A program made the translations under genes and the position numbers. The notes beneath the pieces are model-generated. The model was not told where the DNA came from, ran no database searches, and saw only the letters and a list, made by a program, of their open reading frames with translations. Shown one piece after another: positions 8,551 through 48,353 of a stretch of DNA of 64,000 nt. Every line of letters begins with the position of its first letter. Position 1 is the first letter of the stretch. Source of the stretch: an uncultured Gemmatimonadota bacterium (GTDB lineage: Bacteria > SM23-81 > DAOVCL01); contig CAZVGK010000001.1 in the NCBI GenBank assembly GCA_964626665.1, forward strand, positions 141,914-205,913. The letters run 5' to 3'.

Positions 8551-8564
8551 GTAACACTTACCAC

Positions 8565-8710: not shown

Positions 8711-8725
8711 CAATAGGAAGGAACA

Positions 8726-10906: not shown

Positions 10907-10980
10907 CGCGGTGGCCAACCCCTGTTCTGCTGGGATCAGATCGGGGGGCTGACCACTCTGCCATCAAGGAGGTTTAAATC

Positions 10981-11754: not shown

Positions 11755-11765
11755 AAGGATAAGGG

Positions 11766-12035: not shown

Positions 12036-12037
12036 AT

Positions 12038-12817: not shown

Positions 12818-12825
12818 GTAGAGGC

Positions 12826-12920
12826 TTATACAATTATCAATTAGCAAGTTAAAATGAAATGAAGACCGAAGTGTCACTTTCCATTGATAATTGATAATTG
12901 ATCATGACCATTTCTTAGCG
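12826..12920. repeat. MITE-like intergenic repeat in the fliR-flhB spacer
   Basis: caattatcaattagcaagttaaaatgaa...gtgtcactttccattgataattgataattg...accatttcttagcggtgg; terminal inverted repeats caattatcaatt / aattgataattg. Confidence 0.7.
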
Positions 12921-12945
12921 GTGGACTTGAGCGCAAAGGAGAAAT

Positions 12946-14016: not shown

Positions 14017-14163
14017 TAAAGCTTCGAATCTGTACAGATGGGGCTGCACGCTCTTTGTGGATGTTATCATCCACAAAGAGACTCCTTGCAAGCCCATGGT
14101 TACCAGAATGAAATATCGTCTCAAAGTTTAGTCACCTTAGCGAAGATAAGGCAACAGAAACCA

Positions 14164-16245
14164 ATGAGTAAACACCTTCCAGAAAATAGTTTTGTCTCCC
14201 AGCTAGCCAAGAGGGGAGATACCATTGCAGCCATTGGGGTGATTGTGGTTATTACCCTGATTGTCATCCCTTTACCCCCTCACCTGTTGGATGTTCTCCT
14301 CACCTTCAACATCGCCTTCTCCTTGATCATCATCCTGGTTTCTATGTATACCCTAAAGCCCCTTGACTTCTCCGTATTCCCCTCCCTTTTGTTGGTGGTC
14401 ACCCTCTTTCGGTTGGGCCTCAATGTATCTACCACCAGGCTTATCCTGTTGAAGGCCTATGCCGGAGATGTGATATTGGCCTTTGGCAATTTTGTGGTGG
14501 GGGGGAATTATGTGGTGGGGATAGTTATCTTCCTGGTGATAGTGGTTATTCAGTTTGTTGTTATTACCAAAGGAGCCACCAGGATAGCAGAGGTGGCGGC
14601 CAGGTTTACTTTGGATGCTATGCCGGGAAAGCAGATGGCCATTGATGCTGACCTCAATGCCGGCCTGATCGATGATGAAGAGGCCAGGAAGAGAAGGATG
14701 GAGATAGCCAGGGAGGCCAATTTCTATGGGGCAATGGATGGGGCATCTAAGTTCGTCAGGGGGGACGCAATTGCTGGCATCATCATCACTACGATCAATA
14801 TACTTGGCGGCCTGGTTATTGGAGTGCTCCAGAGGGGGATGCCCCTACCCACTGCCCTGCATACTTATACCTTGCTCACCGTTGGTGATGGGCTGGTGGC
14901 CCAGATCCCGGCCCTGGTTGTCTCCACTGCGGCGGGTATAATCGTCACCCGAGCTGCTGCTGAGGCGGATATGGGGGCCGATATAGTCAAACAATTGTTA
15001 GTGCAGCCAAAGCCCATTGCCCTGGTGGCCATCACCCTTCTTTTTGTGGGGTTGGTCCCTGGTTTGCCCATGGTCCCGTTCTTCATCCTTTCCGCAGCAG
15101 CGGGGGGCATTGCCTACTTCTCCCGCCAGGCGCAGAGAAGGTCGGAGGAGTTGCCCCCTCCAGAGGCTGACCTCCAACCACCCAAGGGGGGGATCGAGGA
15201 TATCAAACAGCTACTCCACATAGACCCTATGGAACTGGAGATAGGTTATGGGCTAATCCCCTTAGTGGACAAGGAACAGGGTGGTGATCTTCTCGATCGG
15301 GTCTCTATGATTCGCCGCCGCTCCGCCCTGGAATTGGGAATTATCGTTCCTCCCATTAGGATAAGGGATAATGTGGCCCTGGAGCCTGACTCCTATCTAA
15401 TTAAGATTAAGGGGACGGAGGTAACCAAAGGGAAGCTAAGGGGGGGGGCTCTCTTAGCTATGAACCCTGGCCTGGCTAAAGGTGAGATAGAGGGCACGCC
15501 CACATCTGAGCCGGTTTTTGGCCTTCCCGCCTACTGGATCGAGCCTTCCCAGAAGGGGAAGGCGGAGAGGATGGGCTACACCGTTGTTGAGCCTCCGGCG
15601 GTAGTGGCTACCCACCTATCCGAGGTGATCAGATCCCATGCCGATGAGCTGCTTGGTAGGCAGGATGTGCAGAACCTGGTAGATGGGATAAAGGAGAGCC
15701 ATCCGGCCGTGGTGGAGGAGCTTATCCCTAAGGTGATGGGAATAGGAGGGGTGCAGAAGGTCCTCCAGAGGTTGTTAAAGGAGCGAATAAGCATTAGGGA
15801 CCTGGTGACTATATTGGAGACTCTGGCAGATTATGGGCCCATGGTCAGGGATATAGACCAACTGACCGAATATGTAAGGCAATCCCTTTCCCGTTCCATC
15901 TGCAAACAGTTCTCCGATGAGCAGGGGGAGATAAAGTGTCTTACCCTGGATCCTAAGTTGGAGCAGATTCTCTCTGATTCCATTAAAAGGTCGGAGACAG
16001 GGGCAACCCTGGCCTTGGAGCCGGGAATCGTCCGTAAGCTCTTCGATAGCATATCCGCTAAGCTGGAGAAGTTTGCCCCGATCAATCAGCAGCCTGTAAT
16101 CCTCTGCCCGGCAAGCATAAGGGTCCACCTCCGCAGACTAATGGAAGGAATCCTGCCCAATTTGGTTGTTCTCTCCTATAAGGAGATTGCCCCTTCCATA
16201 AAGGTAAACTCCATAGGGATGATAGGACTGGAAGATGAGAGTTAA
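14164..16245 (+). CDS. flhA: Flagellar export apparatus protein FlhA
   Basis: FHIPEP family membrane domain and cytoplasmic domain; start placed at the internal ATG (MSKHLPENSF...), the 14038 start in the ORF track looks like an upstream over-extension. Confidence 0.9.
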   Translation: MSKHLPENSFVSQLAKRGDTIAAIGVIVVITLIVIPLPPHLLDVLLTFNIAFSLIIILVSMYTLKPLDFSVFPSLLLVVTLFRLGLNVSTTRLILLKAYAGDVILAFGNFVVGGNYVVGIVIFLVIVVIQFVVITKGATRIAEVAARFTLDAMPGKQMAIDADLNAGLIDDEEARKRRMEIAREANFYGAMDGASKFVRGDAIAGIIITTINILGGLVIGVLQRGMPLPTALHTYTLLTVGDGLVAQIPALVVSTAAGIIVTRAAAEADMGADIVKQLLVQPKPIALVAITLLFVGLVPGLPMVPFFILSAAAGGIAYFSRQAQRRSEELPPPEADLQPPKGGIEDIKQLLHIDPMELEIGYGLIPLVDKEQGGDLLDRVSMIRRRSALELGIIVPPIRIRDNVALEPDSYLIKIKGTEVTKGKLRGGALLAMNPGLAKGEIEGTPTSEPVFGLPAYWIEPSQKGKAERMGYTVVEPPAVVATHLSEVIRSHADELLGRQDVQNLVDGIKESHPAVVEELIPKVMGIGGVQKVLQRLLKERISIRDLVTILETLADYGPMVRDIDQLTEYVRQSLSRSICKQFSDEQGEIKCLTLDPKLEQILSDSIKRSETGATLALEPGIVRKLFDSISAKLEKFAPINQQPVILCPASIRVHLRRLMEGILPNLVVLSYKEIAPSIKVNSIGMIGLEDES

Positions 16246-17275
16246 GGTGTTTTCCGCCCCCTCAGTGAGGGAAGCGCTGAACAGGATAAAGGACGAACTT
16301 GGCTCCCAAGCGGTTATCCTGAAAACAGAGCAAGTGAAGGGGAAAGTAGAGATAACTGCAGCCACTGATGTCGATTATCCACCCCTACAGAGGCAAAGGG
16401 GTAGGGTAGAGGGGATATACGATGTCTTAGATGAGCTCAGGGAGAAGGTTGACGTCATCTCCCAGACCTTGGTTTCCTCCCCTTTTCTCCCTCGCTCTCC
16501 CCTTTCCCAGCTCTGGTTTGTGCTCTTGGGGCGAAGGATAGGGGAGGAGACTTCCCTCCAACTAATCAAAAACCTGAAGAAAGACCTCTTTTCCGGGGGA
16601 GATGAGGAGGTGTTGTGGGATGAGCTCATCTCCCAACTGAGTTTGTTCCTCCCCTCGGAGGAGATTGGGGAAAGGCCAAAGGGGCCAGCCGTCGTCGCCC
16701 TCGTTGGACCCACCGGAGTAGGGAAGACCACAACTATCTCTAAATTAGCAGTTAACTTCTCAACTCTGCAGAGGAAGAAGGTTGCCCTTATCAGCATAGA
16801 CAACTTCCGCCCGGCAGCAGGGGAGGAATTAGCCGAGATTGCTCAGAGCTTGGGAATCCCCTTGGAGCTGGCCAAGACTCCAGGGAGTATGGGAAAACTG
16901 CTGAGGGGTTTTCGGGATAGGGATTTCGTCTTTGTAGATACCGCAGGCCATAGCTATCTGGATACCCAGCAGATTTCAGAGTTGAAATCCTTTCTCCAGC
17001 GGCTGCCCTTGCCAGAGATCCATCTCGTCCTTTCCTCTGCGACTAAGCCGGAGGACAACCTTGAGGCCTGGAGGAGATTTCACCCTATACCCATCCACAA
17101 GCTCCTCTTTACCAAGCTTGATGAGACCACCTCCCCAGGGGGGATAATGGAGACCATTTTTAAGGCAAAGAGGCCGGTCTCCTACCTGACCAATGGACAG
17201 AGGATACCAGAGGATTTATGGGAAGCAGAAAGCAGAACGTTAGCCGAGATAGTTATGGGAGAGAGGACCTTATGA
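16235..17275 (+). CDS. flhF: Flagellar biosynthesis GTPase FlhF (SRP-type)
   Basis: GTPase motifs ALVGPTGVGKTTT, DTAGHS, TKLDET. Confidence 0.85.
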   Translation: MRVKVFSAPSVREALNRIKDELGSQAVILKTEQVKGKVEITAATDVDYPPLQRQRGRVEGIYDVLDELREKVDVISQTLVSSPFLPRSPLSQLWFVLLGRRIGEETSLQLIKNLKKDLFSGGDEEVLWDELISQLSLFLPSEEIGERPKGPAVVALVGPTGVGKTTTISKLAVNFSTLQRKKVALISIDNFRPAAGEELAEIAQSLGIPLELAKTPGSMGKLLRGFRDRDFVFVDTAGHSYLDTQQISELKSFLQRLPLPEIHLVLSSATKPEDNLEAWRRFHPIPIHKLLFTKLDETTSPGGIMETIFKAKRPVSYLTNGQRIPEDLWEAESRTLAEIVMGERTL

Positions 17276-18033
17276 GAAAAATCCCTTATATGATAAGCTT
17301 TCCCAGTGGAAAAGGGGGGGTGGGGAAAACCAATTTGGTGGCCAGTTTAGCAGTAGCCCTCTCCCAAAAGGGGAAGAGGGTAATGATCTTGGATGGGGAT
17401 TTGGGTTTGGCCAATGTGGACCTCCTCTTTGGGGTGAATCCATCTTTTACTCTCCAACATGTTCTCTTGGGGAGAAAGGATTTGCCGGAAATTATTGTAG
17501 ATGGTCCCCAGGGGGTGCAGATCATTCCAGCCAGTTCGGGGGTGGATGACCTCCTTAGACTGGAGGAAAGGGAGATGAAGAGGTTGATCAAGGAGTTCCG
17601 GCTCTTAGGTCAGAGCACAGATTTTCTCCTCATAGACACCCCCCCCGGCCTGAGTCCCAATGTGCTGAATTTTGTTTTGGCCTCTGATCTGGCCATAGTC
17701 ATTACCACCCCGGAGGTTACATCCATAACGGACGCCTATGCTACCATAAAGGTCATCTCCCTGCGACAGCCCACCCCGCAACTGCCCTTAGTAGTTAATA
17801 TGGTCGGGGGAAAGAGGGAGGCATCCGAGGTGGTAGAGAGGATTGGACTGGTGGCTGCCAGGTTCCTTAAGGTTCAGGTAGAGAATTTGGGGTTTATCCC
17901 CTCTGATCAATCGGTCCCCCGATCAGTGGCTAAGCAATTGCCATTTTACCTGGCTTTCCCGCATTCTCCCGCCTCCCAGGGGGTTGCCACCCTGGCCCAG
18001 AGGTTGATAAAGCGGGAACCCTTTGGTGAATGA
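17272..18033 (+). CDS. flhG: Flagellar number regulator FlhG/FleN (MinD-type ATPase)
   Basis: Deviant Walker A SGKGGVGKT; start chosen at the ATG overlapping the flhF stop (ATGA); the ORF track start at 17218 is the alternative. Confidence 0.8.
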   Translation: MRKIPYMISFPSGKGGVGKTNLVASLAVALSQKGKRVMILDGDLGLANVDLLFGVNPSFTLQHVLLGRKDLPEIIVDGPQGVQIIPASSGVDDLLRLEEREMKRLIKEFRLLGQSTDFLLIDTPPGLSPNVLNFVLASDLAIVITTPEVTSITDAYATIKVISLRQPTPQLPLVVNMVGGKREASEVVERIGLVAARFLKVQVENLGFIPSDQSVPRSVAKQLPFYLAFPHSPASQGVATLAQRLIKREPFGE

Positions 18034-18263
18034 ACCAGATAATCAACAGATTGGCCAAAGCCGTTGCCTTCTCCTTGGCTGCGGTTACCGTCATCTGCGG
18101 CCTTATCTTTGATGTTGGGATAGTAAGGATATTGGTGCGCACCTTAGCAGTTTATCTCTTCTTTTTCTATGAAATCAGATTTTTGGGGAGGATAATAGGG
18201 AGGATGATAGTCTCCGCGCTGGCCGAAGGGGAGACAACCCCAGAGGAGGAGGTGCAGAGCTAA
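18030..18263 (+). CDS. Hypothetical small membrane protein (77 aa) between flhG and fliA
   Basis: ORF only; two hydrophobic segments; translationally coupled position. Confidence 0.3.
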   Translation: MNQIINRLAKAVAFSLAAVTVICGLIFDVGIVRILVRTLAVYLFFFYEIRFLGRIIGRMIVSALAEGETTPEEEVQS

Positions 18264-18269
18264 TAGAAG

Positions 18270-18998
18270 ATGGATAACTCTCAAAGGGAAAAGTTACTCT
18301 TGAAGTATGCCCATCTGGTTAAGTATGTGGTAAACCGGATGTTGATTAGTATCCCTCCCTGTTTGGAGAAGGATGATCTGATCAGTGCCGGAACGATTGG
18401 TCTGTTGGAAGCAATTGAGAAGTATGACTCGGGGAAGGGGATAAACTTCGAGACCTATGCCATTTACCGCATCCGAGGGGCGATATTGGATGAGCTGAGG
18501 TCTGTTAACTGGGCACCCAGAACAGTTCAGGAGAAGGCACGGGAACTGGAGAGGGCCTATCGCCATTTGGAGCAGAGGTGGGGAAGGATGGCCACAGATG
18601 AGGAGATAACCCAGGAGTTAGGGATAACCCAGGAAGAACTTTATCGCAGGTTGGATGAGGCCCGGGGGATATCTACCCTCTCTCTGGAGCAATTTCAGTA
18701 CTCCCCTAATGGAGGAGGACAAGTAACCCTCTTAGATAGTTTGAGCAGCAGCTCCCCCTCTCCTCTGGCGGATACGGAAAGGGTGGAATTGAGGGAGGCC
18801 CTGGCCAATGTCCTCGCCACATTGCCCGAAAAGGAGAGGATGGTGATGACCCTTTACTACTATGAGGAGTTAACCCTCAAGGAGATTGGGGATGTGCTTC
18901 ACCTATCCGAGTCAAGGGTTTGTCAAATCCATACTAAGGTGATCATCAAACTGCGCGTAAGGTTGAGAAAGGTTTTAGAACCAGCAGGGGCCTCTTGA
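18270..18998 (+). CDS. fliA: Flagellar sigma factor FliA (sigma-28)
   Basis: Sigma-70 family regions 2-4; region 4 HTH (LTLKEIGDVLHLSESRVCQIHTKVIIKLR); downstream of flhFG. Confidence 0.85.
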   Translation: MDNSQREKLLLKYAHLVKYVVNRMLISIPPCLEKDDLISAGTIGLLEAIEKYDSGKGINFETYAIYRIRGAILDELRSVNWAPRTVQEKARELERAYRHLEQRWGRMATDEEITQELGITQEELYRRLDEARGISTLSLEQFQYSPNGGGQVTLLDSLSSSSPSPLADTERVELREALANVLATLPEKERMVMTLYYYEELTLKEIGDVLHLSESRVCQIHTKVIIKLRVRLRKVLEPAGAS

Positions 18999-19093
18999 GA
19001 GGTGGGAAGCTGCAAATTTTAAAGTGTAAGAGCAAAAATTACCTTTGTTTCCATCCCCATTAAAGCAACATCTTTCCTTTTACTTTGCCTTTT

Positions 19094-19165
19094 TCAATTC
19101 TCAATCTCTGGCTGCAAAACTTGACACAAATTTTAAGAAGTTGCCTTATGAAACCAGCTAAAGCT
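19094..19165. repeat. Intergenic repeat downstream of fliA, related to 62758-62815
   Basis: caatctctggctgcaaaac...ttatgaaaccagcta. Confidence 0.5.
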
Positions 19166-19175
19166 TAGAAGAGAG

Positions 19176-19424
19176 ATGGCTGAATCGATAGATTTTCCTA
19201 AAGACCTTCCGGAACCGGGAAATATCAACCGGGTCCAGGGGGTAGGACACCGCCCCAACGAATCGGAGAAGAGGAAATTTGCTCAGCTCTTAGAGAAGGA
19301 TGAGGAGAAGAAAAAGAAAAAGAAGGAGCACCTTCCCCCTGCGCCGCAGGGCGAGAAGGGTGAACCCCCTAAAAAGGGTTCTTCAGCAAATGGGCGGGGG
19401 AAATTCATCGATGTGACCGTTTGA
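19176..19424 (+). CDS. Hypothetical Lys/Glu-rich protein (82 aa)
   Basis: ORF only; low-complexity charged sequence; follows fliA. Confidence 0.3.
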   Translation: MAESIDFPKDLPEPGNINRVQGVGHRPNESEKRKFAQLLEKDEEKKKKKKEHLPPAPQGEKGEPPKKGSSANGRGKFIDVTV

Positions 19425-20557
19425 TGATGAGAGCTGAGAAGCTGAGGGGCAAGCCCTTATTCTACATAGCAGAACGACCTGGTGAGGATCTCCTCGCGGG
19501 CCTAAGGCCGGGTGCGGTTCTCCGAGGGAGGGTAGTGAGGATACTTCCTCCTGATAAGGCCATAGTTAGAATAAGGGGGTTAAACCTTGTGGCCGAAAAC
19601 CACAGCGGGCTAAAGAAAGGGGATCGTTTTCGGGCCGGGGTGAAGAAGATGGGCCTCCCTTTGGCCTTGACCCTTTTGGAGGAGAATCCCCCTGATGAAA
19701 TCTCCTCCCGCCTAAAGGAAATCGGCATCCAGCCCACCCCTCTAAACAGGGCTTTGGCACAGGCCCTATTGGCCAACGATTTTCCCTTAAACAGAGAGGA
19801 AATGGAAAGTTTTCTTTCCTTATGGAAGAGCGTTTCTTCTGGGTTGGGGGAGGATTCAGTTAGGATAAAAACTGTCATCCTTTTCAAAAAGCTGCAAGCT
19901 GCACCTTCCCCTGAGATGCTTGAGGCCCTTAAGGGGGAGAAGCTTCTTATGGGGAAGAAGATAGATGAGGCCATCCGCTTTTTTCCTCAGCTTGGTGAGG
20001 CCCTAAGCCATCTTCCCGTCCTCCCTGGTGACCCCCAATTTCCCGCCAGGGTGCAGAAGCTTCCTCAGGAGGAGGATGATGTTATAAGAAAGGCTCTACC
20101 TTTGTTGCAGGTGTCCCCGGCGAAGGTTACCCCTCAATTGAAGGATTTCATCAGGGATGTGGGCTATATCAGGGATTTGCAGTTCCTATCTGATAGCTCA
20201 AAGGTTATGACCTATCGGCAGATTCCTATCCAAGAGGGGGATAGGGTGCAAACCCTGCAGTTAAAGATCGAGGGGAAAGGCCGCTCGGTGTGGTTAAGGC
20301 TTTTAGGGGAGATCAGGAAGGGAGGGCGGGTTGAGCTAGTGGTTCACTTAGATGGCCAGAGGGTCCTTTTAAAGGTCTGGGCGGAAAAGGAAAGAGCCGG
20401 TTCCCTCTTTGAGGGAAAATTGCGGGAATTAGAGGAAAAGATAAAAGGCCTGGGCCTTAAGCTGGCCACCCCCCTTATCTGGCAGCAGAAGATCTCCCTC
20501 TCCCCTCTTTCGTTTCTCATCTCCTCTGGGGAGGGGGCCGTAGATCTCAAAGGGTGA
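19421..20557 (+). CDS. Hypothetical protein (378 aa), possibly flagellum-associated by context
   Basis: ORF with start overlapping the previous stop; no motif recognised. Confidence 0.4.
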   Translation: MMMRAEKLRGKPLFYIAERPGEDLLAGLRPGAVLRGRVVRILPPDKAIVRIRGLNLVAENHSGLKKGDRFRAGVKKMGLPLALTLLEENPPDEISSRLKEIGIQPTPLNRALAQALLANDFPLNREEMESFLSLWKSVSSGLGEDSVRIKTVILFKKLQAAPSPEMLEALKGEKLLMGKKIDEAIRFFPQLGEALSHLPVLPGDPQFPARVQKLPQEEDDVIRKALPLLQVSPAKVTPQLKDFIRDVGYIRDLQFLSDSSKVMTYRQIPIQEGDRVQTLQLKIEGKGRSVWLRLLGEIRKGGRVELVVHLDGQRVLLKVWAEKERAGSLFEGKLRELEEKIKGLGLKLATPLIWQQKISLSPLSFLISSGEGAVDLKG

Positions 20558-20568
20558 GGGGAAATTTG

Positions 20569-20633
20569 CAATTATCAATTAACAATGAGCAATTAAGAAA
20601 TCCCCCCTATACAATGGAAAAAGAGCAGAAAGA
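20569..20633. repeat. Partial copy of the caattatcaat repeat upstream of the DUF342-like gene
   Basis: caattatcaattaacaatgagcaattaagaaa...acaatggaaaaag. Confidence 0.5.
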
Positions 20634-20711
20634 AGATAGCATCCTTTATAGACTGGCCGCTGAGCTTGTCTCCTATCTCTATGACCTCGATCCGGAGGAG
20701 GAGGAATAAAA

Positions 20712-21575
20712 GTGGGGCAGACGAAGGTTATCGCAGGGGACATCGATCGGATGAGCGGAGATCTCTCCTTTGAGGGTTCCCTCAGGGTGGAGGGGAGTAT
20801 CAAGCGGGGACAGCGACTGAAGATCTCCGGAGACCTTCTGGTGGAGGGGGAGATTGAGGATGCGGAGGTGGAAACCGGTGGGATGATCACCGTTCAGGGA
20901 GGGATTACGGGAGAGGGTAAGGGGGTGATCTTGGCCTCCGGAGGGGTGAGAGCGAAGTATATAAATAATCAAACTGTAATCAGCCACAGTTTAGTGGAGG
21001 TGAGTGAGGAGATCAGGCAGGCCATCATAAAGGCCGATCAAATGGTGCTGGTTACCCAGGGGAGGGGTTGGATAGTAGGGGGCACAATTACTGCGGGGAG
21101 GGAGGTAAGGGCCAGGAACATTGGCAGTCGCTATGCTACTCCCACTATCATTAAGGTGGGTTTTCTCCCCGAGGTGTGGGATAAGTTGGATGGATTGAGG
21201 AGAAAGATAGCGATGAAGGAGAGGATAAGGACCCAGATGGGGAAGGAGCTGAGCTACCTGCGAAAGCTCAAGAAGCAGGAAGGAAAACTTCCCCCCAGGA
21301 AGGAGGAGCTACTTCAAGAGATAGACTTTCTCCATGGAATCTACCGGGACCAGCTTAAGGAGATGAAGGAGGAGTGGGATTTTTTGGAGAATCACCTCCA
21401 GGAGCTAACCGTGGGTCAGGTGACAGTGGAGGAGATGATCTTCCCCGGGGTGGTCATTAATATCTTAAACTCTCAACGAAAATTAGAGGAAGTCAAAAGG
21501 GGGGTTATCTTCAAAAAGGATAAGGATGAGGTAATTGACTTACCCTGGGAAGTTGGCAATTCCAAGGGCAAGTGA
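20712..21575 (+). CDS. FapA/DUF342-like protein (beta-helical repeats plus coiled-coil tail), GTG start
   Basis: Gly-rich repeats (GDLLVEGEIEDAEVETGGMITVQGGITGEGKGVILASGGVRAKYI) followed by a charged helical region; GGAGGAGGAGG RBS. Confidence 0.4.
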   Translation: MGQTKVIAGDIDRMSGDLSFEGSLRVEGSIKRGQRLKISGDLLVEGEIEDAEVETGGMITVQGGITGEGKGVILASGGVRAKYINNQTVISHSLVEVSEEIRQAIIKADQMVLVTQGRGWIVGGTITAGREVRARNIGSRYATPTIIKVGFLPEVWDKLDGLRRKIAMKERIRTQMGKELSYLRKLKKQEGKLPPRKEELLQEIDFLHGIYRDQLKEMKEEWDFLENHLQELTVGQVTVEEMIFPGVVINILNSQRKLEEVKRGVIFKKDKDEVIDLPWEVGNSKGK

Positions 21576-25575: not shown

Positions 25576-26205
25576 TCACTTAGAATAGAGCTCCACAATC
25601 AATTTTTCGGTGATCGGCTCAGGTATCTGCTCTCTGGTGGGGAGGTCTAGGACCTCACCCTCCAACTTGGCCTTGTCTATCCTCAGCCAGCTCAGCTTAC
25701 CAAGCCTATCTGCGGCCTTCAGAGAGTCATGGATTATGGCTAAATCCCGGCTCTTCTCCCTTACCTTTACCACATCCTTTGGCTTTACTTGGTAGGAGGG
25801 GATGTTCACCTTCCTCTCGTTCACCTGGAAGTGGCTATGCCTCACCAACTGCCTGGCTGTTTTTCGAGAGGGGGCAAAACCGAGCCGGTAGACGGTGTTG
25901 TCTAACCGGGATTCTAAGGCCCGCAGAAGGTTCTCCCCGGTGATACCCTTTTTCCTTTCAGCCTTTTGGAAGTAGTTTCTGAACTGTTTCTCCATTATTC
26001 CATAGATCCTCCGCACCTTCTGCTTCTCCCTTAATTGAAGGCCGTACTCAGACATCCGGCGACGGCGGAGGACCCCATGTTGTCCGGGAAATGATTCCTT
26101 TTTCTCCAGGGCACACTTATCCGTGTAACACCGATCGCCCTTCAGAAAGAGTTTGGTCTTCTCCCGGCGACAGAGCTTGCAAACGGGGCCCTTGTATCTA
26201 GCCAT
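25576..26205 (-). CDS. rpsD: 30S ribosomal protein S4
   Basis: [31 protein letters not shown]. Confidence 0.95.
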
Positions 26206-27007: not shown

Positions 27008-27142
27008 TTAACCTACCCTTCTGGGCTTACCCCTTTGTCTCTGTTTGTGACGGGGGTTTGAGCAGATGACCCGGAGGACCCCCTTCCTTCTAATTACCTT
27101 ACAGTGTTTGCAGAGGGGTTTTATGGAAACTTTGACTTTCAT
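27008..27142 (-). CDS. rpmJ: 50S ribosomal protein L36 (44 aa, below the ORF-track size cutoff)
   Basis: Hand translation of the - strand gives [44 protein letters not shown] with the C-x2-C...C-x4-H zinc ribbon; lies between infA and rpsM. Confidence 0.85.
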
Positions 27143-27357
27143 TTGTACCTGTAGGTTATCCTTCCTCGATTTAGGTCATAGGGGGAGAGTTCCACAGCCA
27201 CCCTATCTCCTGGGAGTATCTTGATATAATGCATCCTCATCTTCCCGGAGATGTGGGCTAAAACCCGGTGGCCATTTTTTAACTCCACCCTGAAAGTGGC
27301 ATTGGGAAGGGGCTCAATCACTACCCCGTCAACCTTTATCGTCTCCTGTTTAGCCAT
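27139..27357 (-). CDS. infA: Translation initiation factor IF-1
   Basis: [53 protein letters not shown]; start set at MAKQE. Confidence 0.9.
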
Positions 27358-28003
27358 CCCTGGCCTCAAGCTTTTCCGTTATTTCCTCAAAGACCGCCGT
27401 GGCATCTCCATCTCCCTCTACATCTATTAAGATCCCCTGAGCTCGGTAATACTCCTGCAACTCCTTTATCTCCTTAGCATAGATGGAGAGCCTTTTCTTG
27501 ATGGTTTGCGGGCGATCGTCTTCCCTTTGATAGAGCTCCCCCCCGCAGCGATCACAGATACCATCCGATTTTGGAGGGGCGGTGATTAAGTTATAGACGG
27601 CTCCACAGGATGAACAGACCCTCCGATTGGAGAGCCGACGCAGGATAACCTCCTGAGAAACCTCTATATCAATGACCCCAGTGAGAGTCCAATCCATATC
27701 CCTGCCTATTGCCTCTAACCCTTCGGCCTGGGCCAGGTCGCGGGGAAAACCATCTAAGATGAACCCTTCTGTACAGTCTTCTCCATGGAGTCTTAGCTTG
27801 ACCAACTCCATCATAATCTCATCAGGGACAAGTTCTCCCTTATCCCAAAACCTCTTGGCTTTCTTCCCCCAAGAAGAACCATCCCTCACAGCAGACCTCA
27901 ATATCTCCCCCGTAGAGATGTGGGGTATTCCATATTCCTGGCTGAGCATCTCTGCCTCAACGCCTTTCCCTGCCCCGGGTGGTCCCAAGATTACCAATCT
28001 CAT
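27350..28003 (-). CDS. adk: Adenylate kinase (zinc-lid type)
   Basis: P-loop GPPGAGKG; lid CSSCG...CDRCG. Confidence 0.9.
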
Positions 28004-32034: not shown

Positions 32035-32046
32035 CGGCTTATCCCT

Positions 32047-32232
32047 TTACCAACTTGCCTTGGCCACGCCAGGGATTTCCCCGCGCAGGGCCAACTCCCG
32101 GAAGCATATTCTGCAGAGCCCAAATTTCCTCATATAGGCCCGGGAACGGCCGCAACGGGGACATCTGTTGTACTTTCTCACCTTGAACTTGGGTTCTCTC
32201 TTCGCTTTTACCTTTAAGGACTTCTTGGCCAA
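32047..32232 (-). CDS. rpsN: 30S ribosomal protein S14, zinc-binding type Z (61 aa)
   Basis: [20 protein letters not shown] zinc ribbon; position between rplE and rpsH. Confidence 0.9.
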
Positions 32233-32246
32233 TCCTTCTCCTTTCG

Positions 32247-32395
32247 TAACAGTTTACCACGGAATCTCACGGAAAAAAGCAATTAAGAATTGAAAATTAA
32301 AAATGAAACTTATGCTGGCCCCTCCTGATCTCTGAAGACTGATCTCTGTTTTTCTGTGCTAGTCCGTGGTCATCCGTGGTGAAATATTCTCTCCT
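32247..32395. repeat. Intergenic repeat block in the rplE-rpsZ spacer
   Basis: 32247-32312 is the near-exact reverse complement of 1146-1205; 32345-32390 matches the ctgtttttctgtgc-tagtccgtggt block at 30000-30043. Confidence 0.7.
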
Positions 32396-32938: not shown

Positions 32939-33250
32939 TTAACCCAAAAGCTCCCCACACCGTTTGCAGTATCTACCCTTGCTTCCATCAGGAAGGACCC
33001 TGATGCCCATCTTTACCCCGCGGGCACAGTTGTTGCACCAGACCAGCACATTGGAGGCATTAATGGGGCCCTCCTTCGTTAAGATTCCCCCTTGTTGCCT
33101 TGTCTGGGTGGGTTTAGTGTGTCGTTTGACGAAGTTAACCCCTTCCACAATCAAGGCTCCCTTTTTGTGAAAGACCTTGAGAACTTTGCCGGTTTTTCCC
33201 TTATACTCACCCTCAGTGACTACTACTGTGTCTCCTTTTTTGGCCTTCAT
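32939..33250 (-). CDS. rplX: 50S ribosomal protein L24 with an apparent C-terminal Cys4 zinc ribbon
   Basis: KOW region [26 protein letters not shown]; C-terminus VWCNNCARG...[10 protein letters not shown]. Confidence 0.85.
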
Positions 33251-37025: not shown

Positions 37026-40000
37026 TTATTTGAGTAACACCATTTTTCTGGTAAGCGAGAAATCTCCTGCTTGAAAACGGCAAAAATAGATACCACTTGT
37101 CACCTCTTTTCCACTCCGATCCTTGCCATCCCAGTAAGTTTTGTAATACCCACTTGACTTATCCTCATCCACCAGAGTTTTCACTAATTGCCCTTTTATA
37201 TTATAGATCTTGAGGGTCACATAGGTGTTTCCCGCGAGTCCGTAATTGATCTCCGTGATTAGGTTAAAAGGATTAGGGTAGTTCTGGGAGAGGGTAAACA
37301 CAGATGGCACTGGAGATTCGTTGCACGAGGGTACGGACTTTTTATCCTCTCGAACATAATGGCCGGTGGTGACCAGGACGAAATCCCTCTCATAATCACT
37401 CAACTGCTTGGGGGCAGAAAAGGCCAGCCTCACCTCTTGCCCAGGAATCAACTCGGCATAGACTCCATCTGGCTGCAAAAGGGACTTCAGGACAGAACCA
37501 TTTGCTGAGTGAAGGGCCTTAGCCAGTGGACAACTCCGAATCTTTAAGGACACATCTTCAGCCCCAACCAGCCCAATAAAATCTAAATCATAAGGTATCT
37601 GCCAAAGGAGACGCACCTCTACCTCTCTCCCCTCAGATACTCTCCATGGCAACTCTACCAACTCCGTATACTTGTTCTCCCTATAACTGATTCCCAATAC
37701 TGTCTGAGATTTGGGGAAATCATCTCCAATAATCAACATAGGTTCCGCTTTGGGACGCCTTTTGCTCTGGTCTTTAGCAACCGTTCCACCTATGACCAAG
37801 GCCACTTTCCTAATCCCTTTAACCTGGCCGAAATTAACCGTGAGCTCATCCCCTCCTCTCCCCCTGAAAACCAGACCATCCGCCGCTGAAACATATTTTG
37901 AGAATTCTCCACCCAAAGAATCAACAGCAGATATTGGGCCAGTCAGCTTCTTGTAACCCAATATCTTTCCCGATGTGCTAACTGCAACCTTAACTTCAGA
38001 TGGATGCTCCACCGCCATAAGCTGTAGCTGATCGATCCAGGAGTGTTCATTTTCAAATTCGCGAAGCTCAAGATAGTAGTTTCCGTCTTCAGGGACAAGG
38101 GGTTGTTGAAGCTGGTAGTAATCGCTTATGTCCTTACCCTCATTCTCCAGCAGTTCAGCAAGAGGTAGAAGGTTATTGTCCTCTACACTCTTCTCTCCAT
38201 CCCAGGTAAACACATAGGGACAACCATTGTAGGGCGAATGATGATGATAAAAAGCTCCCATATCTGCCCTTGTCCCATCAGGATCCTTTGGACTAAGGGG
38301 ATAACCTGTATCTATGCAAGGTGAACCCGCTTGTAGGTGATAATCACCATTGGCAGAATTTAAGAACATTGGATCAGCAGATATATCTTCTCTACCTACT
38401 GCACAACCCTGGTAGTTAACGCCATTACCCCATAGGTCATTGTAAGATATGTTTGGGAAAAGATCAACATCACTATAAATACCATAATCGCTATTACTGG
38501 TGATTATGGTATTTGTAATAGTCAGATAGCAGTTATCAATGCATCGAATACCCGTGTTATTACCAGGGATCGTGTTGTTGATAATATTTGGACAGCATTG
38601 TAGTGTGCATTGAACAGCAATATTATTATTAGTGAGCAAATTCCTCTCAATATCGGGGGAGGCAGAAAACATACAACCTATCCCAAAATGTGACATATCG
38701 GTAATGGTATTACTACGGATTTTGCAGAGATGAGATGATGACCCCCAGCAGAGGATACCATAGGTATCATCACCGTTGCCAAGGATTGAGTTGTTACTAA
38801 TAGTTAGATAGTTAGAAGTAGGTGAGCAGGCTAATCCCTCGTTTTCAACAGTAATCTTATTGTGGGAAATCTCCCCCCACCCATTAGCGACAACAGCATA
38901 TTGACAGTGACTTATCTCGCTGTTGCTTATGGTGGCAAATGAATTGAACCAGACCCCTTGATAGGCGTCTTTTATGGCGCAAAAATTTAAAGTTAAATTA
39001 CCACCATCGCCAATATGGGTGGATATCCCTCCCCAATCTGAGATAGAAGGGGCCGAAGTATTTGATGAACAAAAGGTAATTTCGTAGTCATCTACCCCGA
39101 TAGCCCTTAATGCCCCATCCACCAAAAGCTCACATTTATCTGGATAAAGCCCTATATTTTGGACATCACTATTTGCCGAGAAGTAAACAGTAACCCCAGG
39201 GTCTATAGTGAGGAGGGCTCCATCATCCACAGTTACATCGCCATATACATAGATGTCCCCTGACCAGGTGGTGTTTTCAGTAATATGTCCATGAACTCCA
39301 CATGCAAGTTCGGTTTCATAAGGTATGTTGTTGTGTTTAGTAACTGTAACCTTCAACTCATCATAGGTGGAAAAAGAGGTGTTGAAGGTCGCCTCTCCGT
39401 TAGCATCGGTATATTGGATTTCGTGATAGTCCTCACTCTCTTTCCATAGACATACCAAGGCATCCGGAACACCAGCATTGATAGTAATACTGCTGGGGCC
39501 GATCTGATAGAAGCAGGGATGGGAGACGGCAAGAGGTTGAGGCACCCCTGTCCAGATCCGCAGGGCCGGATCCCCAAGGACATGGAAATCCTCGAACTCA
39601 ACCCTGGTTACCTCGGGGGTAGGTGCCCATTTTGAAGGATATCCTGCCCCACCTGTGAGGACATATTTGTCGAACATCCAGAACTTGCCGTAGTTCAGGA
39701 TCGCACCCAACCGGTCTGTCGGGCTACCGATCTGTGTGCCGCAGTACCCGGGGTCGAAGTCGTCCCAGATGGCGTCGTAGAACCCCTTGCAAAGCTCATC
39801 GTTATACCCGCTGTAGCTGATCCTGGTCGAGCCGATGAAGCCCACAACCCCCTTCCCCTGGGCCTTCAACAGTGCCTCTCCCAGGCAATCCGTGATCAGA
39901 TAATCGGGGGAGTCCAGATCGGTCTCCCCATCGAACCATCCGGTCCGGCAATTAATGCTGAACATCACCGGGAGCTTATCACCGTTACCCAGGCTGGGAA

Positions 40001-41471
40001 TATCCTCGGTGACGAACCACGGCTTATTCCAACCATTGTAGCCACCAGATGGGGCATTATAGGAGTCTCCGTGATCCCGATGATTGACTAAGAAACATCC
40101 CTGGTTGATCGCATCGATCACGTCCTGGGTGGTGCCATCGAAGGTCAGATGCCCCGGGATGGGATCTCCATTGTGGTAGTACTGAGGGGTTGACCCTATT
40201 GAGCAGGTGTAAACCCTCTGACGGTCATACCCCTCGCCCTCTAAGAAATCCTGGACCACCTCAGAGGTGTAAATGAAAAACCTGTCCTCCCGGCCATCAG
40301 GTTTGAAGTCCTCGAAATGGCCCGCCAACAGAACCCGGTTGAACCACTCCGAGCTTGTTGTATACGGATCCCGCTCATACCCCAGGATCTTGTCCACGAC
40401 TATCCCGATATCCGACTCATCCACCGGCAACCTCCCCACCAGGATATCGGGGAAATCGACCAACTGAGTGTCAGGTGGGTCGTTCTCTGTATCGACTGTG
40501 GCGTAGTAGAGATCAGTCCCGACCTTTTCGTCTCCAAATGGATGAGGATACTTGTAATGGACTGGTAGAAGATCTGCATCGCCGACCAGAAGGAGAAAAG
40601 ATGGGGCCGGATCCCAGGTGTCATAGGCAACCTGGACATAATCGGCGATCTGGTCAGCCGTGGGATCACCCCCTAACTCCGAGAGCTTGACGACTCTGGT
40701 CTTGAGTCCTGTCCGCTGCCTCCATTCAGCTAAAGGCAGGATCTCATCGTAAAGGTCGTCATGCACCATGATCAGGTAGTCCGCCCCGTCGCCACCCTTC
40801 CCCTTCCCCCCACCCACTGGTTCGTAGTTGAGGGCCAGCCTGTTGAGCATAGACCGAAAATGGGGGGAATCCTTGGGGCTGGCCACGGATCCGGCACCAC
40901 TCACGCTCACCCTGAGCTCGGGATAGACCCTCAACTGCCCGGTAACAGGATTGTGCTGCACCGGGTAGAGGATGACCAGGACAAGCCTATGACCCCGAAG
41001 TACCCTGGGAAAGCTGAGGGCGACTATGTTCTTCGGGTAAAAGCCGTCCTCGGAATATAGGGAGTCATCCCTGACGAACTCGGTCGTGTCGTCCCACTCG
41101 ATCCGTGGCTCCTGGGCCGGATAGACCAGATACCCATCCAGGATCTGACTGGTCGAGTCGATGATGGTGACCGTGGGCTCGACCCCGGGCTCGATCTCCA
41201 TCAGTATGGCCACGGTGGGGAGCTCTGGCCGGCCGATCTCGGCGATATGCCCGCCGCCGGAAAACCTCAGCAGTTGATAGGTATCCCCCTCGGCCTCCAT
41301 GTCGTGGCTGATCAGACCATATGTCTCCAGCTCGATGATTTCCGAGCCAGAAAGGGTAATCTGCGGCCTGGTCGGAGTGGTCGCATCCCCAAAGGAGACC
41401 CACATTCCGTAACCAGCGCTGGGGACAAATCCCAGCAAGGCCACCACTATAAGAAAACGAATCGCCTTCAT
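37026..41471 (-). CDS. Secreted multidomain gingipain-like cysteine peptidase (family C25 fold) with parallel beta-helix repeats and a Por/T9SS-type C-terminal sorting domain
   Basis: Signal peptide; His region VNHRDHGDS and Cys region LPVMFSINCRTGWFDG with ...LGDPALRIWTGVP, resembling the gingipain catalytic domain; Asn/Gly/Ile-rich beta-helix repeats; C-terminus LSQNYPNPFN...IYNIKGQLVKTLVD...GIYFCRFQAGDFSLTRKMVLLK. Confidence 0.75.
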   Translation of the reverse strand: MKAIRFLIVVALLGFVPSAGYGMWVSFGDATTPTRPQITLSGSEIIELETYGLISHDMEAEGDTYQLLRFSGGGHIAEIGRPELPTVAILMEIEPGVEPTVTIIDSTSQILDGYLVYPAQEPRIEWDDTTEFVRDDSLYSEDGFYPKNIVALSFPRVLRGHRLVLVILYPVQHNPVTGQLRVYPELRVSVSGAGSVASPKDSPHFRSMLNRLALNYEPVGGGKGKGGDGADYLIMVHDDLYDEILPLAEWRQRTGLKTRVVKLSELGGDPTADQIADYVQVAYDTWDPAPSFLLLVGDADLLPVHYKYPHPFGDEKVGTDLYYATVDTENDPPDTQLVDFPDILVGRLPVDESDIGIVVDKILGYERDPYTTSSEWFNRVLLAGHFEDFKPDGREDRFFIYTSEVVQDFLEGEGYDRQRVYTCSIGSTPQYYHNGDPIPGHLTFDGTTQDVIDAINQGCFLVNHRDHGDSYNAPSGGYNGWNKPWFVTEDIPSLGNGDKLPVMFSINCRTGWFDGETDLDSPDYLITDCLGEALLKAQGKGVVGFIGSTRISYSGYNDELCKGFYDAIWDDFDPGYCGTQIGSPTDRLGAILNYGKFWMFDKYVLTGGAGYPSKWAPTPEVTRVEFEDFHVLGDPALRIWTGVPQPLAVSHPCFYQIGPSSITINAGVPDALVCLWKESEDYHEIQYTDANGEATFNTSFSTYDELKVTVTKHNNIPYETELACGVHGHITENTTWSGDIYVYGDVTVDDGALLTIDPGVTVYFSANSDVQNIGLYPDKCELLVDGALRAIGVDDYEITFCSSNTSAPSISDWGGISTHIGDGGNLTLNFCAIKDAYQGVWFNSFATISNSEISHCQYAVVANGWGEISHNKITVENEGLACSPTSNYLTISNNSILGNGDDTYGILCWGSSSHLCKIRSNTITDMSHFGIGCMFSASPDIERNLLTNNNIAVQCTLQCCPNIINNTIPGNNTGIRCIDNCYLTITNTIITSNSDYGIYSDVDLFPNISYNDLWGNGVNYQGCAVGREDISADPMFLNSANGDYHLQAGSPCIDTGYPLSPKDPDGTRADMGAFYHHHSPYNGCPYVFTWDGEKSVEDNNLLPLAELLENEGKDISDYYQLQQPLVPEDGNYYLELREFENEHSWIDQLQLMAVEHPSEVKVAVSTSGKILGYKKLTGPISAVDSLGGEFSKYVSAADGLVFRGRGGDELTVNFGQVKGIRKVALVIGGTVAKDQSKRRPKAEPMLIIGDDFPKSQTVLGISYRENKYTELVELPWRVSEGREVEVRLLWQIPYDLDFIGLVGAEDVSLKIRSCPLAKALHSANGSVLKSLLQPDGVYAELIPGQEVRLAFSAPKQLSDYERDFVLVTTGHYVREDKKSVPSCNESPVPSVFTLSQNYPNPFNLITEINYGLAGNTYVTLKIYNIKGQLVKTLVDEDKSSGYYKTYWDGKDRSGKEVTSGIYFCRFQAGDFSLTRKMVLLK

Positions 41472-41488
41472 CCTAACCTCCTTGACTT

Positions 41489-42703
41489 TTATCTCACCAA
41501 CATCAACTTCCTCACATTGGTGAGGGCTCTCCCTCTTCTGTTCTCAGCCCGCAACAGGCAAAGATATATCCCACTTGGTACTTCCTTCCCTCCCCCATCC
41601 CTCCCATCCCAGATCACCCGATGCTCTCCAGGTGGCTGTGGGCCATCCACCAGTGTCCGCACCACCTGTCCCAAGATGTTGTAGACCCTCAAGGTGGTTG
41701 GAACTGACCACTGACCACTGACCACTGGGGAAGGGAGGTGGTAGGGGATGACGGTACCCGAATTGAACGGGTTCGGATAGTTCTGGCCCAGGGCGAAAAA
41801 CCCTGGAACGATGGCCTTATCCTCAGATGGAACCCAATTGTGTGGCCTTGACCTGGGGTTTCTGACCCCATCGACCTCCCCAAATTGAGGACCTGTCGGC
41901 TCCGTGGAGGTGGTGGTGCAATCACCGTCGCCGATCGTGTCCACAGGAAAGCCAAGGGTGGTGTCGATATTCCCCTCACACTGCAGGTAGTTGCCGTCCA
42001 GGAAGCCCCCTCCCATGATGGTGTGGGATCCAAAGTTCCAACCGATGGTGAATATAATGTCGTTCTCCAACAACAAAGGATTGCTCGGTTCCAACCCAAA
42101 GAGCGCTCCTCCTCCTCCCGACCTCAAAAAGCAATATTCGATCACTGGAAAGGAAGAACTGTCACAGGCGACCAAAAACCCCCCCGTCTCAACCTGACTG
42201 CTCGTCCACATCAGCTTGCAGTGGGAGATGGTGGGAGAGGCGTTAGATATCTGGATCATTATACCCTCGGCACTGCTGGTGTGCTCCACCACACAGTACC
42301 TAAGAATGCACTCCGAATCCACACAGGTATCGTTAAATTTTATCCCCCCCCAGGCAGTCCAAGGCCACTCTTCACCATCGTCGGTGAAGCTAATCATCAC
42401 ATCTGGCTTCCCGCAGGCCTCTAAGGCCCCGTTGATGGTCAACCCAATAGCCTCCTCGAACTTCAACACCATCCCCGGATCTATGACCAGCTTGTCGTTG
42501 GCCGAGATGGTTAGGTTCCCACTTATCAGATAATACCCCTCATCCCGCCAGGTGACATCATCGGTAAGCTCGTCCACCATCTGCATGGTGTAAACCGTCC
42601 CATCCCCAGGGGAAACCCAATCGGCCCAGGCCAAAAGGGGGAAACACCAGATGATGCTGATAAAGACGATTAAACTCCTCCATTCTCTCATCCTCACCTC
42701 CAA
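41489..42703 (-). CDS. Secreted protein with Por/T9SS-type C-terminal sorting domain; central domain not assigned
   Basis: Signal peptide; C-terminus ALGQNYPNPFN...LRVYNILGQVVRTLVDGPQPPGEHRVIWDGRDGGGKEVPSGIYLC. Confidence 0.65.
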   Translation of the reverse strand: MEVRMREWRSLIVFISIIWCFPLLAWADWVSPGDGTVYTMQMVDELTDDVTWRDEGYYLISGNLTISANDKLVIDPGMVLKFEEAIGLTINGALEACGKPDVMISFTDDGEEWPWTAWGGIKFNDTCVDSECILRYCVVEHTSSAEGIMIQISNASPTISHCKLMWTSSQVETGGFLVACDSSSFPVIEYCFLRSGGGGALFGLEPSNPLLLENDIIFTIGWNFGSHTIMGGGFLDGNYLQCEGNIDTTLGFPVDTIGDGDCTTTSTEPTGPQFGEVDGVRNPRSRPHNWVPSEDKAIVPGFFALGQNYPNPFNSGTVIPYHLPSPVVSGQWSVPTTLRVYNILGQVVRTLVDGPQPPGEHRVIWDGRDGGGKEVPSGIYLCLLRAENRRGRALTNVRKLMLVR

Positions 42704-45041: not shown

Positions 45042-46934
45042 CTATTTGAGAAGCGCCATCTTTTTAGCAACTTTAACATCCCCAGCTTGGATTTTATAAA
45101 AATAAACCCCACTTGCCACCTCTTGCCCATTGTCGTCTCTTCCTCCCCAACAGATATTATACCGGCCGGCTCTTTGTCTCTCATCTACTAAGGTTTTAAC
45201 CTTCTGTCCTAAGAGATTGTAAACAACCAAACTCACCTGGGCATCCATCGGAAGTTCATAGCCTATCTCGGTCTCCGGGTTGAAAGGATTGGGGAAATTC
45301 TGGGCCACAAAAAACTCCTTTGGCAATTTTTCGTCTTCATTGGGTTCTACAAACACTTCGACTGAGTAAGACGCCTCCATAACCCCCCAGATGTTATAGA
45401 CCTCGATGGTTATTGTGCTGTCCCAAACTTCATCCATAGGATCTTCGTAACTAAAGGTGAAGCCTGTCACTTGGTCATTAGGCGGATAACCTCCAAAGTC
45501 AGTTGGATGAATGGTTATCCCATTATGTGTGGGGTTGTCGTCCCCACAGTTGTGTTGGTCATCATAGTCCACATACTTATCATAACTCCATCCTCCTGTG
45601 CCCGAGCCGTATACCCGCACCCTATTCAGATCAAGTTCGTTCCCAGGCACTGTCACCCAAAAAGAGGCTCTCGGCGAATGGGAGCTAACACCCCATATGG
45701 TCATATTTTCAGTATCTGTATGGGGCAAAACATTCATCGGGTTCCTTAAGTAAGAAAAGGCGGTTCCACCCAGGTAATCCTCAGCATGTAAGTGATCAAG
45801 CCCAATATGCCTAATCCCTCCAATTCTGGTCAGTCCAGCAAAAACACTATCTCCAAAATTTACACTGGGATTTACATGCACATATTCCATACGCTGATTT
45901 GGAATCACAGCATCTCTAATCCTAACCGACTGGCTGCCTATGTGATCAACAACACCGGTAAAAACAGCGTAAACATCATCCTCTGTCGCAGGATTATCAT
46001 CATCATCAATGTCAAGTCCGCCATGCCAATCAAAGGTAGTGTCATTCCCAGAGATTAGGATTCTCGGCCCAAAGGGACTGGTTAAACTATGAAGGGGTGT
46101 GGTGTTTCGAGACAAAGGCCAGTAATAATTCTCCGTTCTAATTCTCAGAATAACATCGTCAACAAATGCGCCTTTATGTGTCTGAGTGCCATCGCTTTCG
46201 AAAGCAAACGCTATCCAAACTTGAGGGTGACCACAAACATTACCTATGTCAGGGACATTGGTCAGATCGAAGTTTTCAAAGCGCCAGACATCCCCTCCAT
46301 CGCCATAGGCCGCATAACCTGAGAAATTTGTGCCATCGATTGATGCAAGTCGAGAGAACATATCAGCTTCGTACATCGTACGACACCAATAATAAAAGTG
46401 CAGCTCCGCATCGGTGACGTTGCCAACACTAAGGTCGCAAGGACCCCAAATCATAAAGGTGAGAACATTATTGGCATAATCATCAAACTCTGGATCAAGG
46501 CCATTTACCCCATCCCGGCAACACCATGCACTATATTTTCCTGAATGAGGATTATAGTCATCTTTACCCCATAAATGACCGGTGGGATTGCCTGTGTGCC
46601 CAACATCTCGGCGGCTCCAAGCATATCTGGGAAAAGACGATTCGAAATCTTCGGTCATAATGTTAACCCAATGTGGCAGAAGGAGGGCATCATTCCCATC
46701 TTTGATGTTTCCATTCTGGCTGTTTCCCATATGTATAATGCGTACACTTTCTGAAAGTTCTGAATTTTTGCCACAAGAAACCAATGCTTTATCTCCATCC
46801 AGCAATTGATAGTGAATCTTCTGCGAGCTGACAAATTCCCCGATTTCAACTTTAGCTAAAGCAACGGTAGCACCTATTAGAGGAAACCCTATTATAAAAG
46901 AAGCACATATTCCTAATTTCCAATGAACCTGCAT
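45042..46934 (-). CDS. Secreted protein with a possible M23-like metallopeptidase region and a Por/T9SS-type C-terminal sorting domain
   Basis: Signal peptide; HGGLDI and LDHLHAE resemble the M23 HxxxD and HxH motifs (tentative); C-terminus FFVAQNFPNPFN...VYNLLGQKVKTLVD...GVYFYKIQAGDVKVAKKMALLK; AT-rich third codon positions. Confidence 0.6.
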   Translation of the reverse strand: MQVHWKLGICASFIIGFPLIGATVALAKVEIGEFVSSQKIHYQLLDGDKALVSCGKNSELSESVRIIHMGNSQNGNIKDGNDALLLPHWVNIMTEDFESSFPRYAWSRRDVGHTGNPTGHLWGKDDYNPHSGKYSAWCCRDGVNGLDPEFDDYANNVLTFMIWGPCDLSVGNVTDAELHFYYWCRTMYEADMFSRLASIDGTNFSGYAAYGDGGDVWRFENFDLTNVPDIGNVCGHPQVWIAFAFESDGTQTHKGAFVDDVILRIRTENYYWPLSRNTTPLHSLTSPFGPRILISGNDTTFDWHGGLDIDDDDNPATEDDVYAVFTGVVDHIGSQSVRIRDAVIPNQRMEYVHVNPSVNFGDSVFAGLTRIGGIRHIGLDHLHAEDYLGGTAFSYLRNPMNVLPHTDTENMTIWGVSSHSPRASFWVTVPGNELDLNRVRVYGSGTGGWSYDKYVDYDDQHNCGDDNPTHNGITIHPTDFGGYPPNDQVTGFTFSYEDPMDEVWDSTITIEVYNIWGVMEASYSVEVFVEPNEDEKLPKEFFVAQNFPNPFNPETEIGYELPMDAQVSLVVYNLLGQKVKTLVDERQRAGRYNICWGGRDDNGQEVASGVYFYKIQAGDVKVAKKMALLK

Positions 46935-46952
46935 AACTCCCCCTACTCTAAG

Positions 46953-48353
46953 TCAAAGACTAGCCTTAACTTTTTGAACCACTTTTCTTCCCCTATCCAA
47001 AATGATGAAAGACCTCATCCCATTTTCGTAACTCATCATAGGGAGGATGCGAACTGTGTCATAAGACTTCTTGCATATTTCACCTGTTTCTAAACTAAAG
47101 ATAACGGCAACCTCCTCAAATTTTAAGCTAACTCTCTCCCTTCTGCGCATCGTAGTAACAAAGCTCTTGTTAATGGTAGATGCGCAACATTGATGCCAAT
47201 AACTATTCCAGTCTTTCCCTAAAACTTTTCTCCATCTTCTTTTTCCAGTAAGAAGATCAAAGATATCTATCGTAGATGGAGGCCCACTTTCGGCAAGGAG
47301 ACTCTTAGAGTCGTCAATAAAACAGAACCAGTTTAATCCTCCTACTTTTTCTATCCGCCTTTCGGGCCCCATTGCTGCCTCTATCGTCACAAAGTCTTTG
47401 CTGTTCCACAATATATCCCCTTCATTGCTTAATACTACCAGTCTCCTCTCCCCGCCGCTTCTCTCTTCACCCGGAAGATTGGAATAGTCCACCGCAATGG
47501 CCATAAACTTCCCACTTTCACTCACCTCAAGTTGCGGTATTTCTGTTGGATTAAAAAACAATCTAAAGTGAAGGGGATCTCCTAATCTTTCACCAATATC
47601 AATTTCCCACTTCGTTTTTAAATTCTTTACATTAAAAAGAAGCAACTTGACATAAGGCCTTTCCAGGTTGTATCCCTTGAAATAGACGACTTCGCTGTCA
47701 TTTAAAAATGTGGCCACCCAATTAAATTCCGTGCGTATAATTTTAGAACCTCTCTCAATGGATTCCTTCCCTTTGTCCCACCATAACTCCTCACCAGTTC
47801 TATTATCAAAAACCCTGAAATATCCACCCCACCTTTCGACACCGCTTTTGTGAGTTGTTATGGCATAGTCACCTTTGGGCGATAAGGTGAGTCCTGGTGC
47901 AAAAAGAGGAGTCTCCCACTTGAGATTGCCATCCTTGTCGTAACTCTTCGTAATCACCCACTCACATCCGGCACGAGAATTTATGATTACTTCTCCCCCT
48001 TCCGCTGAGATCGACACATTATCCACTCCACCATAATATTCGCCACGTTCATCTGGCTTCAGGTCAAATCTCTTCTCCCACAAAATATTTCCATTAGGCC
48101 CCAAATAGTAAACAACACTGCAAAGGCCTTCCCTCTTATCAAAAATATCTGTCAGAACAACTATGTTCTCATTGCCAACCTGGATGTCTCGTATCTTGCC
48201 TCCAAATTCCCTTTCCCAAATCAGCTTTGAGTTGGGGAATAAGCCCTTTGCCGGCGATTCCGCTATGGCACTGCCTACCCACATCATCAACAACGCCAAT
48301 ACAGAGAGAGCCAGAACCCTCAGGATTCCTTTTCTCAACACTTGCTTCCCCAT
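46953..48353 (-). CDS. Hypothetical secreted or membrane-anchored protein (466 aa), possibly beta-propeller-like
   Basis: N-terminal signal/anchor (LRVLALSVLALLMMWVGSAIA); Trp/Gly-rich repeats; AT-rich codon usage like the neighbouring 630-aa gene; 18 bp upstream of it. Confidence 0.55.
   Translation of the reverse strand: MGKQVLRKGILRVLALSVLALLMMWVGSAIAESPAKGLFPNSKLIWEREFGGKIRDIQVGNENIVVLTDIFDKREGLCSVVYYLGPNGNILWEKRFDLKPDERGEYYGGVDNVSISAEGGEVIINSRAGCEWVITKSYDKDGNLKWETPLFAPGLTLSPKGDYAITTHKSGVERWGGYFRVFDNRTGEELWWDKGKESIERGSKIIRTEFNWVATFLNDSEVVYFKGYNLERPYVKLLLFNVKNLKTKWEIDIGERLGDPLHFRLFFNPTEIPQLEVSESGKFMAIAVDYSNLPGEERSGGERRLVVLSNEGDILWNSKDFVTIEAAMGPERRIEKVGGLNWFCFIDDSKSLLAESGPPSTIDIFDLLTGKRRWRKVLGKDWNSYWHQCCASTINKSFVTTMRRRERVSLKFEEVAVIFSLETGEICKKSYDTVRILPMMSYENGMRSFIILDRGRKVVQKVKASL

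Follow-up and report, generated by a model that had tools for sequence, protein, structure and literature searches.

The four-cysteine ribosomal protein uL24 of an uncultured bacterium is a known and widespread isoform with a putative zinc site

The gene analysed in this work, rplX, is located in a long same-strand ribosomal superoperon of the spc type, where it is flanked by rplN and rplE (Table 1). The window referred to below is the whole 64-kb stretch of DNA that was analysed (64,000 nucleotides, from an uncultured bacterium). Residues 1-101 of the rplX product are matched by the NCBIfam profile TIGR01079 (rplX_bact) with 111 bits (cut-off 53.7), and the protein carries the two expected Pfam domains, KOW (PF00467, 34.6 bits) and the L24 C-terminal domain (PF17136, 82.8 bits). 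An identical protein is present on JGI metagenome contigs, e.g. the 151.7-kb Ga0315538_1000011, and the order rplN-rplX-rplE is also found at three metagenome loci (L001-L003). The window L24 is thus an ordinary bacterial ribosomal protein uL24 in its four-cysteine form.

Table 1. Features of the window discussed in the text, with positions counted from its first nucleotide
Feature	Position	Strand	Basis or remark
rplX, uL24, C+ (Cys4) isoform	32939..33250	-	ORF, 103 aa; profile, alignment and model matches
First CxxC knuckle of L24, C72-N-N-C75	33026..33037	-	codons C72 33035-33037, C75 33026-33028
Second CxxC knuckle of L24, C95-K-R-C98	32957..32968	-	codons C95 32966-32968, C98 32957-32959
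rplN, L14	33247..33615	-	neighbour of rplX
rplE, L5	32398..32937 or 32988, depending on start	-	neighbour of rplX
rpsN, uS14, short 61-aa C+ form CPRC...CRIC	32047..32232	-	ORF, motif scan; PF00253 on the identical gene in L002
73-aa ORF competing with rpsN	32039..32260		same ORF as in contig L001
rpmJ, bL36, C+ form CKHC...CSNPRH (CxxxxH)	27008..27142	-	gene map; motif from translation
rpsD, uS4, C+ form CKLC...CYTDKC	25576..26205	-	gene map; fits the (CXXC)-(CXXXXC) pattern of PMC10450194
rpmG, bL33, C+ form CTEC...CKFC	63609..63758	-	motif scan; named from sequence and position upstream of secE-nusG
Adenylate kinase (adk), Cys4 lid CSSC...CDRC	27350..28003	-	lid of the putative zinc-binding type
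Signal-peptide protein genes within the superoperon, first block	37026..42703	-	between rplB and rplW
Signal-peptide protein genes within the superoperon, second block	45042..48353	-	between rpsJ and tuf
Flagellar/motility-like cluster	59..21575	+	judged from translations alone

Several features of the neighbourhood deserve a description of their own. The longest rplE ORF begins at 32988, the start used by the metagenome gene calls, and overlaps the tail of the L24 gene by 50 nt. The long form is probably over-extended, because the L5-like sequence starts no earlier than an ATG at position 32937 (MARLKEYY...), a single base past the L24 stop codon. Further upstream, the S10 region of the superoperon is broken at two places by genes for signal-peptide proteins transcribed from the same strand. 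The block between rplB and rplW encodes a protein of 1481 aa (gingipain-like Peptidase_C25 with propeptide, beta-helix and Por_Secre_tail, a C-terminal sorting domain like those of type IX secretion) together with one of 404 aa, and that between rpsJ and tuf encodes proteins of 630 aa (with Por_Secre_tail) and 466 aa. In a relative whose L24 is 82% identical, the same class of genes is found between rplX and rplE instead (L084:6079-12750), the sorting domains of the two organisms being 53% identical; in a more distant Zixibacteria MAG the interruption is absent. The insertion positions differ between the two relatives. The arrangement suggests that type IX secretion cargo genes were lodged repeatedly inside the ribosomal operon, and as an oddity this interruption by secreted-protein genes outranks the L24 motif. 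The superoperon directly adjoins a flagellar/motility-like cluster, whose ORFs appear FlgE-, MotA/B-, FliP/Q/R-, FlhB/A/F- and sigma-28-like. Between adk and infA the window holds no methionine aminopeptidase gene, unlike the usual tail of the spc operon.

The window L24 contains exactly four cysteines, C72/C75 and C95/C98, arranged as two CxxC pairs. This C-terminal Cys4 tail had been pointed out in a sequence-only reading, and its sequence is exactly as quoted there. All four cysteines are kept in its nearest database homologues, four proteins of 79-87% identity, and also in a Candidatus Zixiibacteriota MAG, which at 85% identity is the nearest species genome. Cysteine likewise occupies these four columns in the majority of homologues to an identity of about 48%. 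Since these columns stay Cys while the neighbouring residues vary, the alignments indicate that the arrangement is real and under selection and no chance pattern.

The top sequence match in the PDB is L24 of Thermus thermophilus (phmmer, E 1.2e-22), represented by several hundred ribosome entries. The two proteins belong to the same family, are of nearly equal length (PDB 4V8A chain AY, 4Y4Y, 10PX chain 1Y) and align without gaps, with Cys in the same four columns and a common CxxC-x19-CxxC spacing: C72-N-N-C75 pairs with C-P-A-C of Thermus, and C95-K-R-C98 with C-A-K-C. They differ in that overall identity is only ~45%, that the Thermus protein has an extra 4-residue N-terminal and a short C-terminal extension, and that Thermus is a thermophile, while the source of the window is an uncultured, Zixibacteria-like bacterium. 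Given the gapless alignment, the window cysteines are homologous to the four of T. thermophilus uL24, which are presumed Zn ligands.

An AlphaFold2 model of the window L24 was built from a 52-sequence alignment (mean pLDDT 87.5) and compared with solved structures by Foldseek. In the model, according to DSSP, C72 ends the strand E68-72 and the first CxxC spans the turn before E77-79, while C95 ends the strand E91-95 and is followed by a turn; this predicted placement of the CxxC pairs at strand ends and turns would fit the layout of two zinc knuckles. The predicted structure, a KOW barrel with a C-terminal beta domain, matches the uL24 fold of solved chains with TM scores of 0.85-0.95. The T. 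thermophilus chain 4v8a_AY superimposes on it with TM 0.95 and an rmsd of 1.1 Å over 103 columns, and the Cys-free L24 proteins of Bacillus, Listeria, Staphylococcus and others reach TM 0.85-0.94. B. subtilis L24 is as similar overall as the Thermus protein, yet lacks Cys at the four columns. The Cys-free (C-) uL24 of E. coli, B. subtilis and S. aureus share with the window L24 the family, the fold, the operon position and C-terminal hairpins with the conserved R93 and G99, but their Cys positions are replaced, e.g. by D/P...K/T and A/S...K/S, which leaves no metal site. Since the fold is the same with or without the cysteines, the most plausible reading of the predicted L24 site is a structural metal clamp within a common fold, with no new domain.

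We therefore regard the window L24, with a probability of roughly 0.9, as the standard, single-copy uL24 in its metal-binding C+ isoform, with four thiolates around one Zn2+. Its N-terminal KOW barrel and C-terminal beta-sheet domain would contact 23S rRNA close to the polypeptide exit tunnel, as they do throughout the bacteria. The C-terminal beta-hairpins end in the two CxxC turns, and these would most likely gather the four thiolates around one Zn2+, giving a zinc-ribbon-like clamp of the kind listed in PMC10450194 for uL24 of T. thermophilus. The metal would cross-brace the small domain, leaving fold and ribosomal role unchanged. By analogy with the Thermus protein, zinc would be bound by the window L24 itself, and the site may have been retained as an ancestral or stabilising feature.

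Most of the sampled C+ L24 proteins come from lineages whose names are usually associated with anaerobes, so that substitution by iron is conceivable. The cysteines might then hold another cofactor (Fe in a rubredoxin-like site, or an Fe-S cluster), or they might form a redox dithiol/disulfide pair near the tunnel exit; an Fe-S cluster does occupy a similar Cys motif in T. thermophilus uS4 (PMC10450194). The same source, however, assigns Zn2+ to uL24, and zinc ribbons canonically have one CxxC...CxxC set on two hairpin turns. Against a redox or catalytic role stands the unchanged fold of the Cys-free forms, which speaks for a structural function. We consider another cofactor or a redox pair unlikely.

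Zinc-responsive paralogue pairs are familiar from other C+ proteins (summarised in PMC10450194): for L31, L33, S14 and S18, a C+ copy made when zinc is replete is matched by a Zur-controlled C- copy. It may also be asked whether the C+ L24 belongs to such a pair. The window, however, contains a single rplX, in the canonical operon slot, and no second L24 gene was found in the 64 kb or in three other gene-listed neighbourhoods. Nothing within the 64-kb window suggests a zinc-starvation switch between L24 copies, and we judge such a pair to be very improbable.

The four-cysteine, zinc-type reading of L24 leads to the question of how widespread the form is. The CxxC...CxxC motif is present in 108 of the 120 best homologues, at identities down to 46%, in a sample biased towards the query because the search was seeded by shared words. 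Among 80 loci from species-representative genomes of many phyla, 60 carry the Cys4 form; they include Desulfobacterales, Endomicrobia/Elusimicrobia, Acidobacteria, Methylomirabilota and Rokubacteria, as well as Spirochaetia, Omnitrophota, Edwardsbacteria, some Eisenbacteria and others. In the candidate phylum Eisenbacteria the loci of this sample are mixed (7 Cys4, 9 Cys-free), and the occurrence of both states within it therefore points to repeated loss of the site. A less biased count was obtained with the Cys-free N-terminal 70 residues as query against 1.84 billion representatives of 50%-identity clusters. This search gave many frameshifted or chimeric singletons, and only the 52 sequences aligning end to end with the L24 profile were kept; 17 of these full-length representatives are Cys4 and 35 are not. 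Because the motif recurs in all three samples, Cys4 L24 is a common isoform across many bacterial phyla and not a lineage-specific one.

The system of C+ and C- ribosomal proteins, reportedly set out by Makarova et al. in 2001, is said to comprise S14, S18, L28, L31, L32, L33 and L36. It has been extended to uL24 and uS4 in a 2023 NAR paper (PMC10450194). Summarising earlier structures, that paper counts T. thermophilus uL24 as one of the ribosomal proteins that coordinate zinc; it defines C+ uL24 by the pattern (CXXC)-(CXXC), and its survey of this isoform covers 2021 bacteria. The C-terminal domain of the window L24 fits this definition (C72xxC75, C95xxC98). Like the other members of the system, L24 is a small ribosomal protein with a pair of knuckles of the Cys4 (or Cys3His) kind that has been lost repeatedly in evolution; it is larger than the others, and neither duplicated C+/C- L24 paralogues nor zinc-regulated switching is evident here. 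According to the survey, the uL24 site does not vary among bacteria with growth at 80 °C or more and is strictly conserved only in these, the stabilising role being correlative. Non-thermophilic outliers rich in C+ forms were noted among Deltaproteobacteria, Endomicrobia, Acidobacteria and others and were linked to slow divergence from the root (PMC10450194), and Cys4 L24 is seen in these same groups in our 80-locus sample.

The zinc-type L24 is thus real, but it is already known, widespread and present in the literature. That the Cys4 tail is an innovation of the source organism's lineage, founding a new class of zinc ribosomal proteins, is hardly credible: the classic list does lack L24 and the literature on the point is sparse, but the identical arrangement occurs in T. 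thermophilus, and the motif is spread over many phyla and has been surveyed (PMC10450194). The sequence-only reading had proposed a possibly lineage-specific zinc-binding L24. The layout of its Cys4 site and the correspondence of its columns with Thermus L24 stand, and the lineage-specific or undescribed status does not, as the form is both common in samples from many phyla and described. The seven-protein list that it gave, from which L24 is missing, is incomplete.

The name L24 itself calls for some caution. The bacterial protein is uL24, whose eukaryotic equivalent is L26. The archaeal/eukaryotic eL24 (L24e) is a treble-clef zinc finger protein (PMC4999995); it shares with the window L24 only the name and zinc binding, which in the window L24 is putative, and the two families are unrelated. 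Publications retrieved for L24 and zinc deal mostly with this treble-clef eL24 or with herpesvirus UL24, and both were set aside as unrelated. Further literature searches turned up no useful earlier account of a zinc ribbon in bacterial L24.

The ribosomal proteins of the window capable of carrying a metal site are S4, S14, L24, L33 and L36, and all five are C+. Two side observations touch on such Cys-rich proteins. On one metagenome contig (L001:3991-4212) a 73-aa ORF with no recorded Pfam match was called instead of the 61-aa S14 gene, which was called on an otherwise identical contig (L002:4019-4204). The window contains this competing ORF too, and its call in place of S14 is an annotation artefact. 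The adenylate kinase gene of the window encodes a Cys4 lid, which by its sequence would be of the zinc-binding type.

According to PMC10450194, thermophiles or slowly diverging lineages typically show such an all-C+ profile. As a rough proxy for growth temperature, IVYWREL gave 64 °C for the translation genes and 44 °C for the flagellar genes; it was rejected as too dependent on the gene set. One might speculate that in a possibly non-thermophilic Zixibacteria lineage, apparently of sediments, the C+ set with uL24 at the tunnel exit owes its retention to something other than heat stability, such as a zinc store, or redox or metal sensing for ribosome assembly or nascent-chain handling. The basis for this idea consists of the C+ forms and of the closest named relatives being sediment metagenome bins, and nothing more; we give it a very slight chance, and slow divergence from the ancestral state has been offered for C+-rich outliers (PMC10450194).

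The discovery value of these results is small. Their use lies in correcting the familiar list of zinc and zinc-free bacterial ribosomal proteins, which omits uL24 and uS4. For the source organism, the all-C+ set is a small ecological or evolutionary hint; for the family, the Cys4 uL24 is to be regarded as a normal, widespread isoform.
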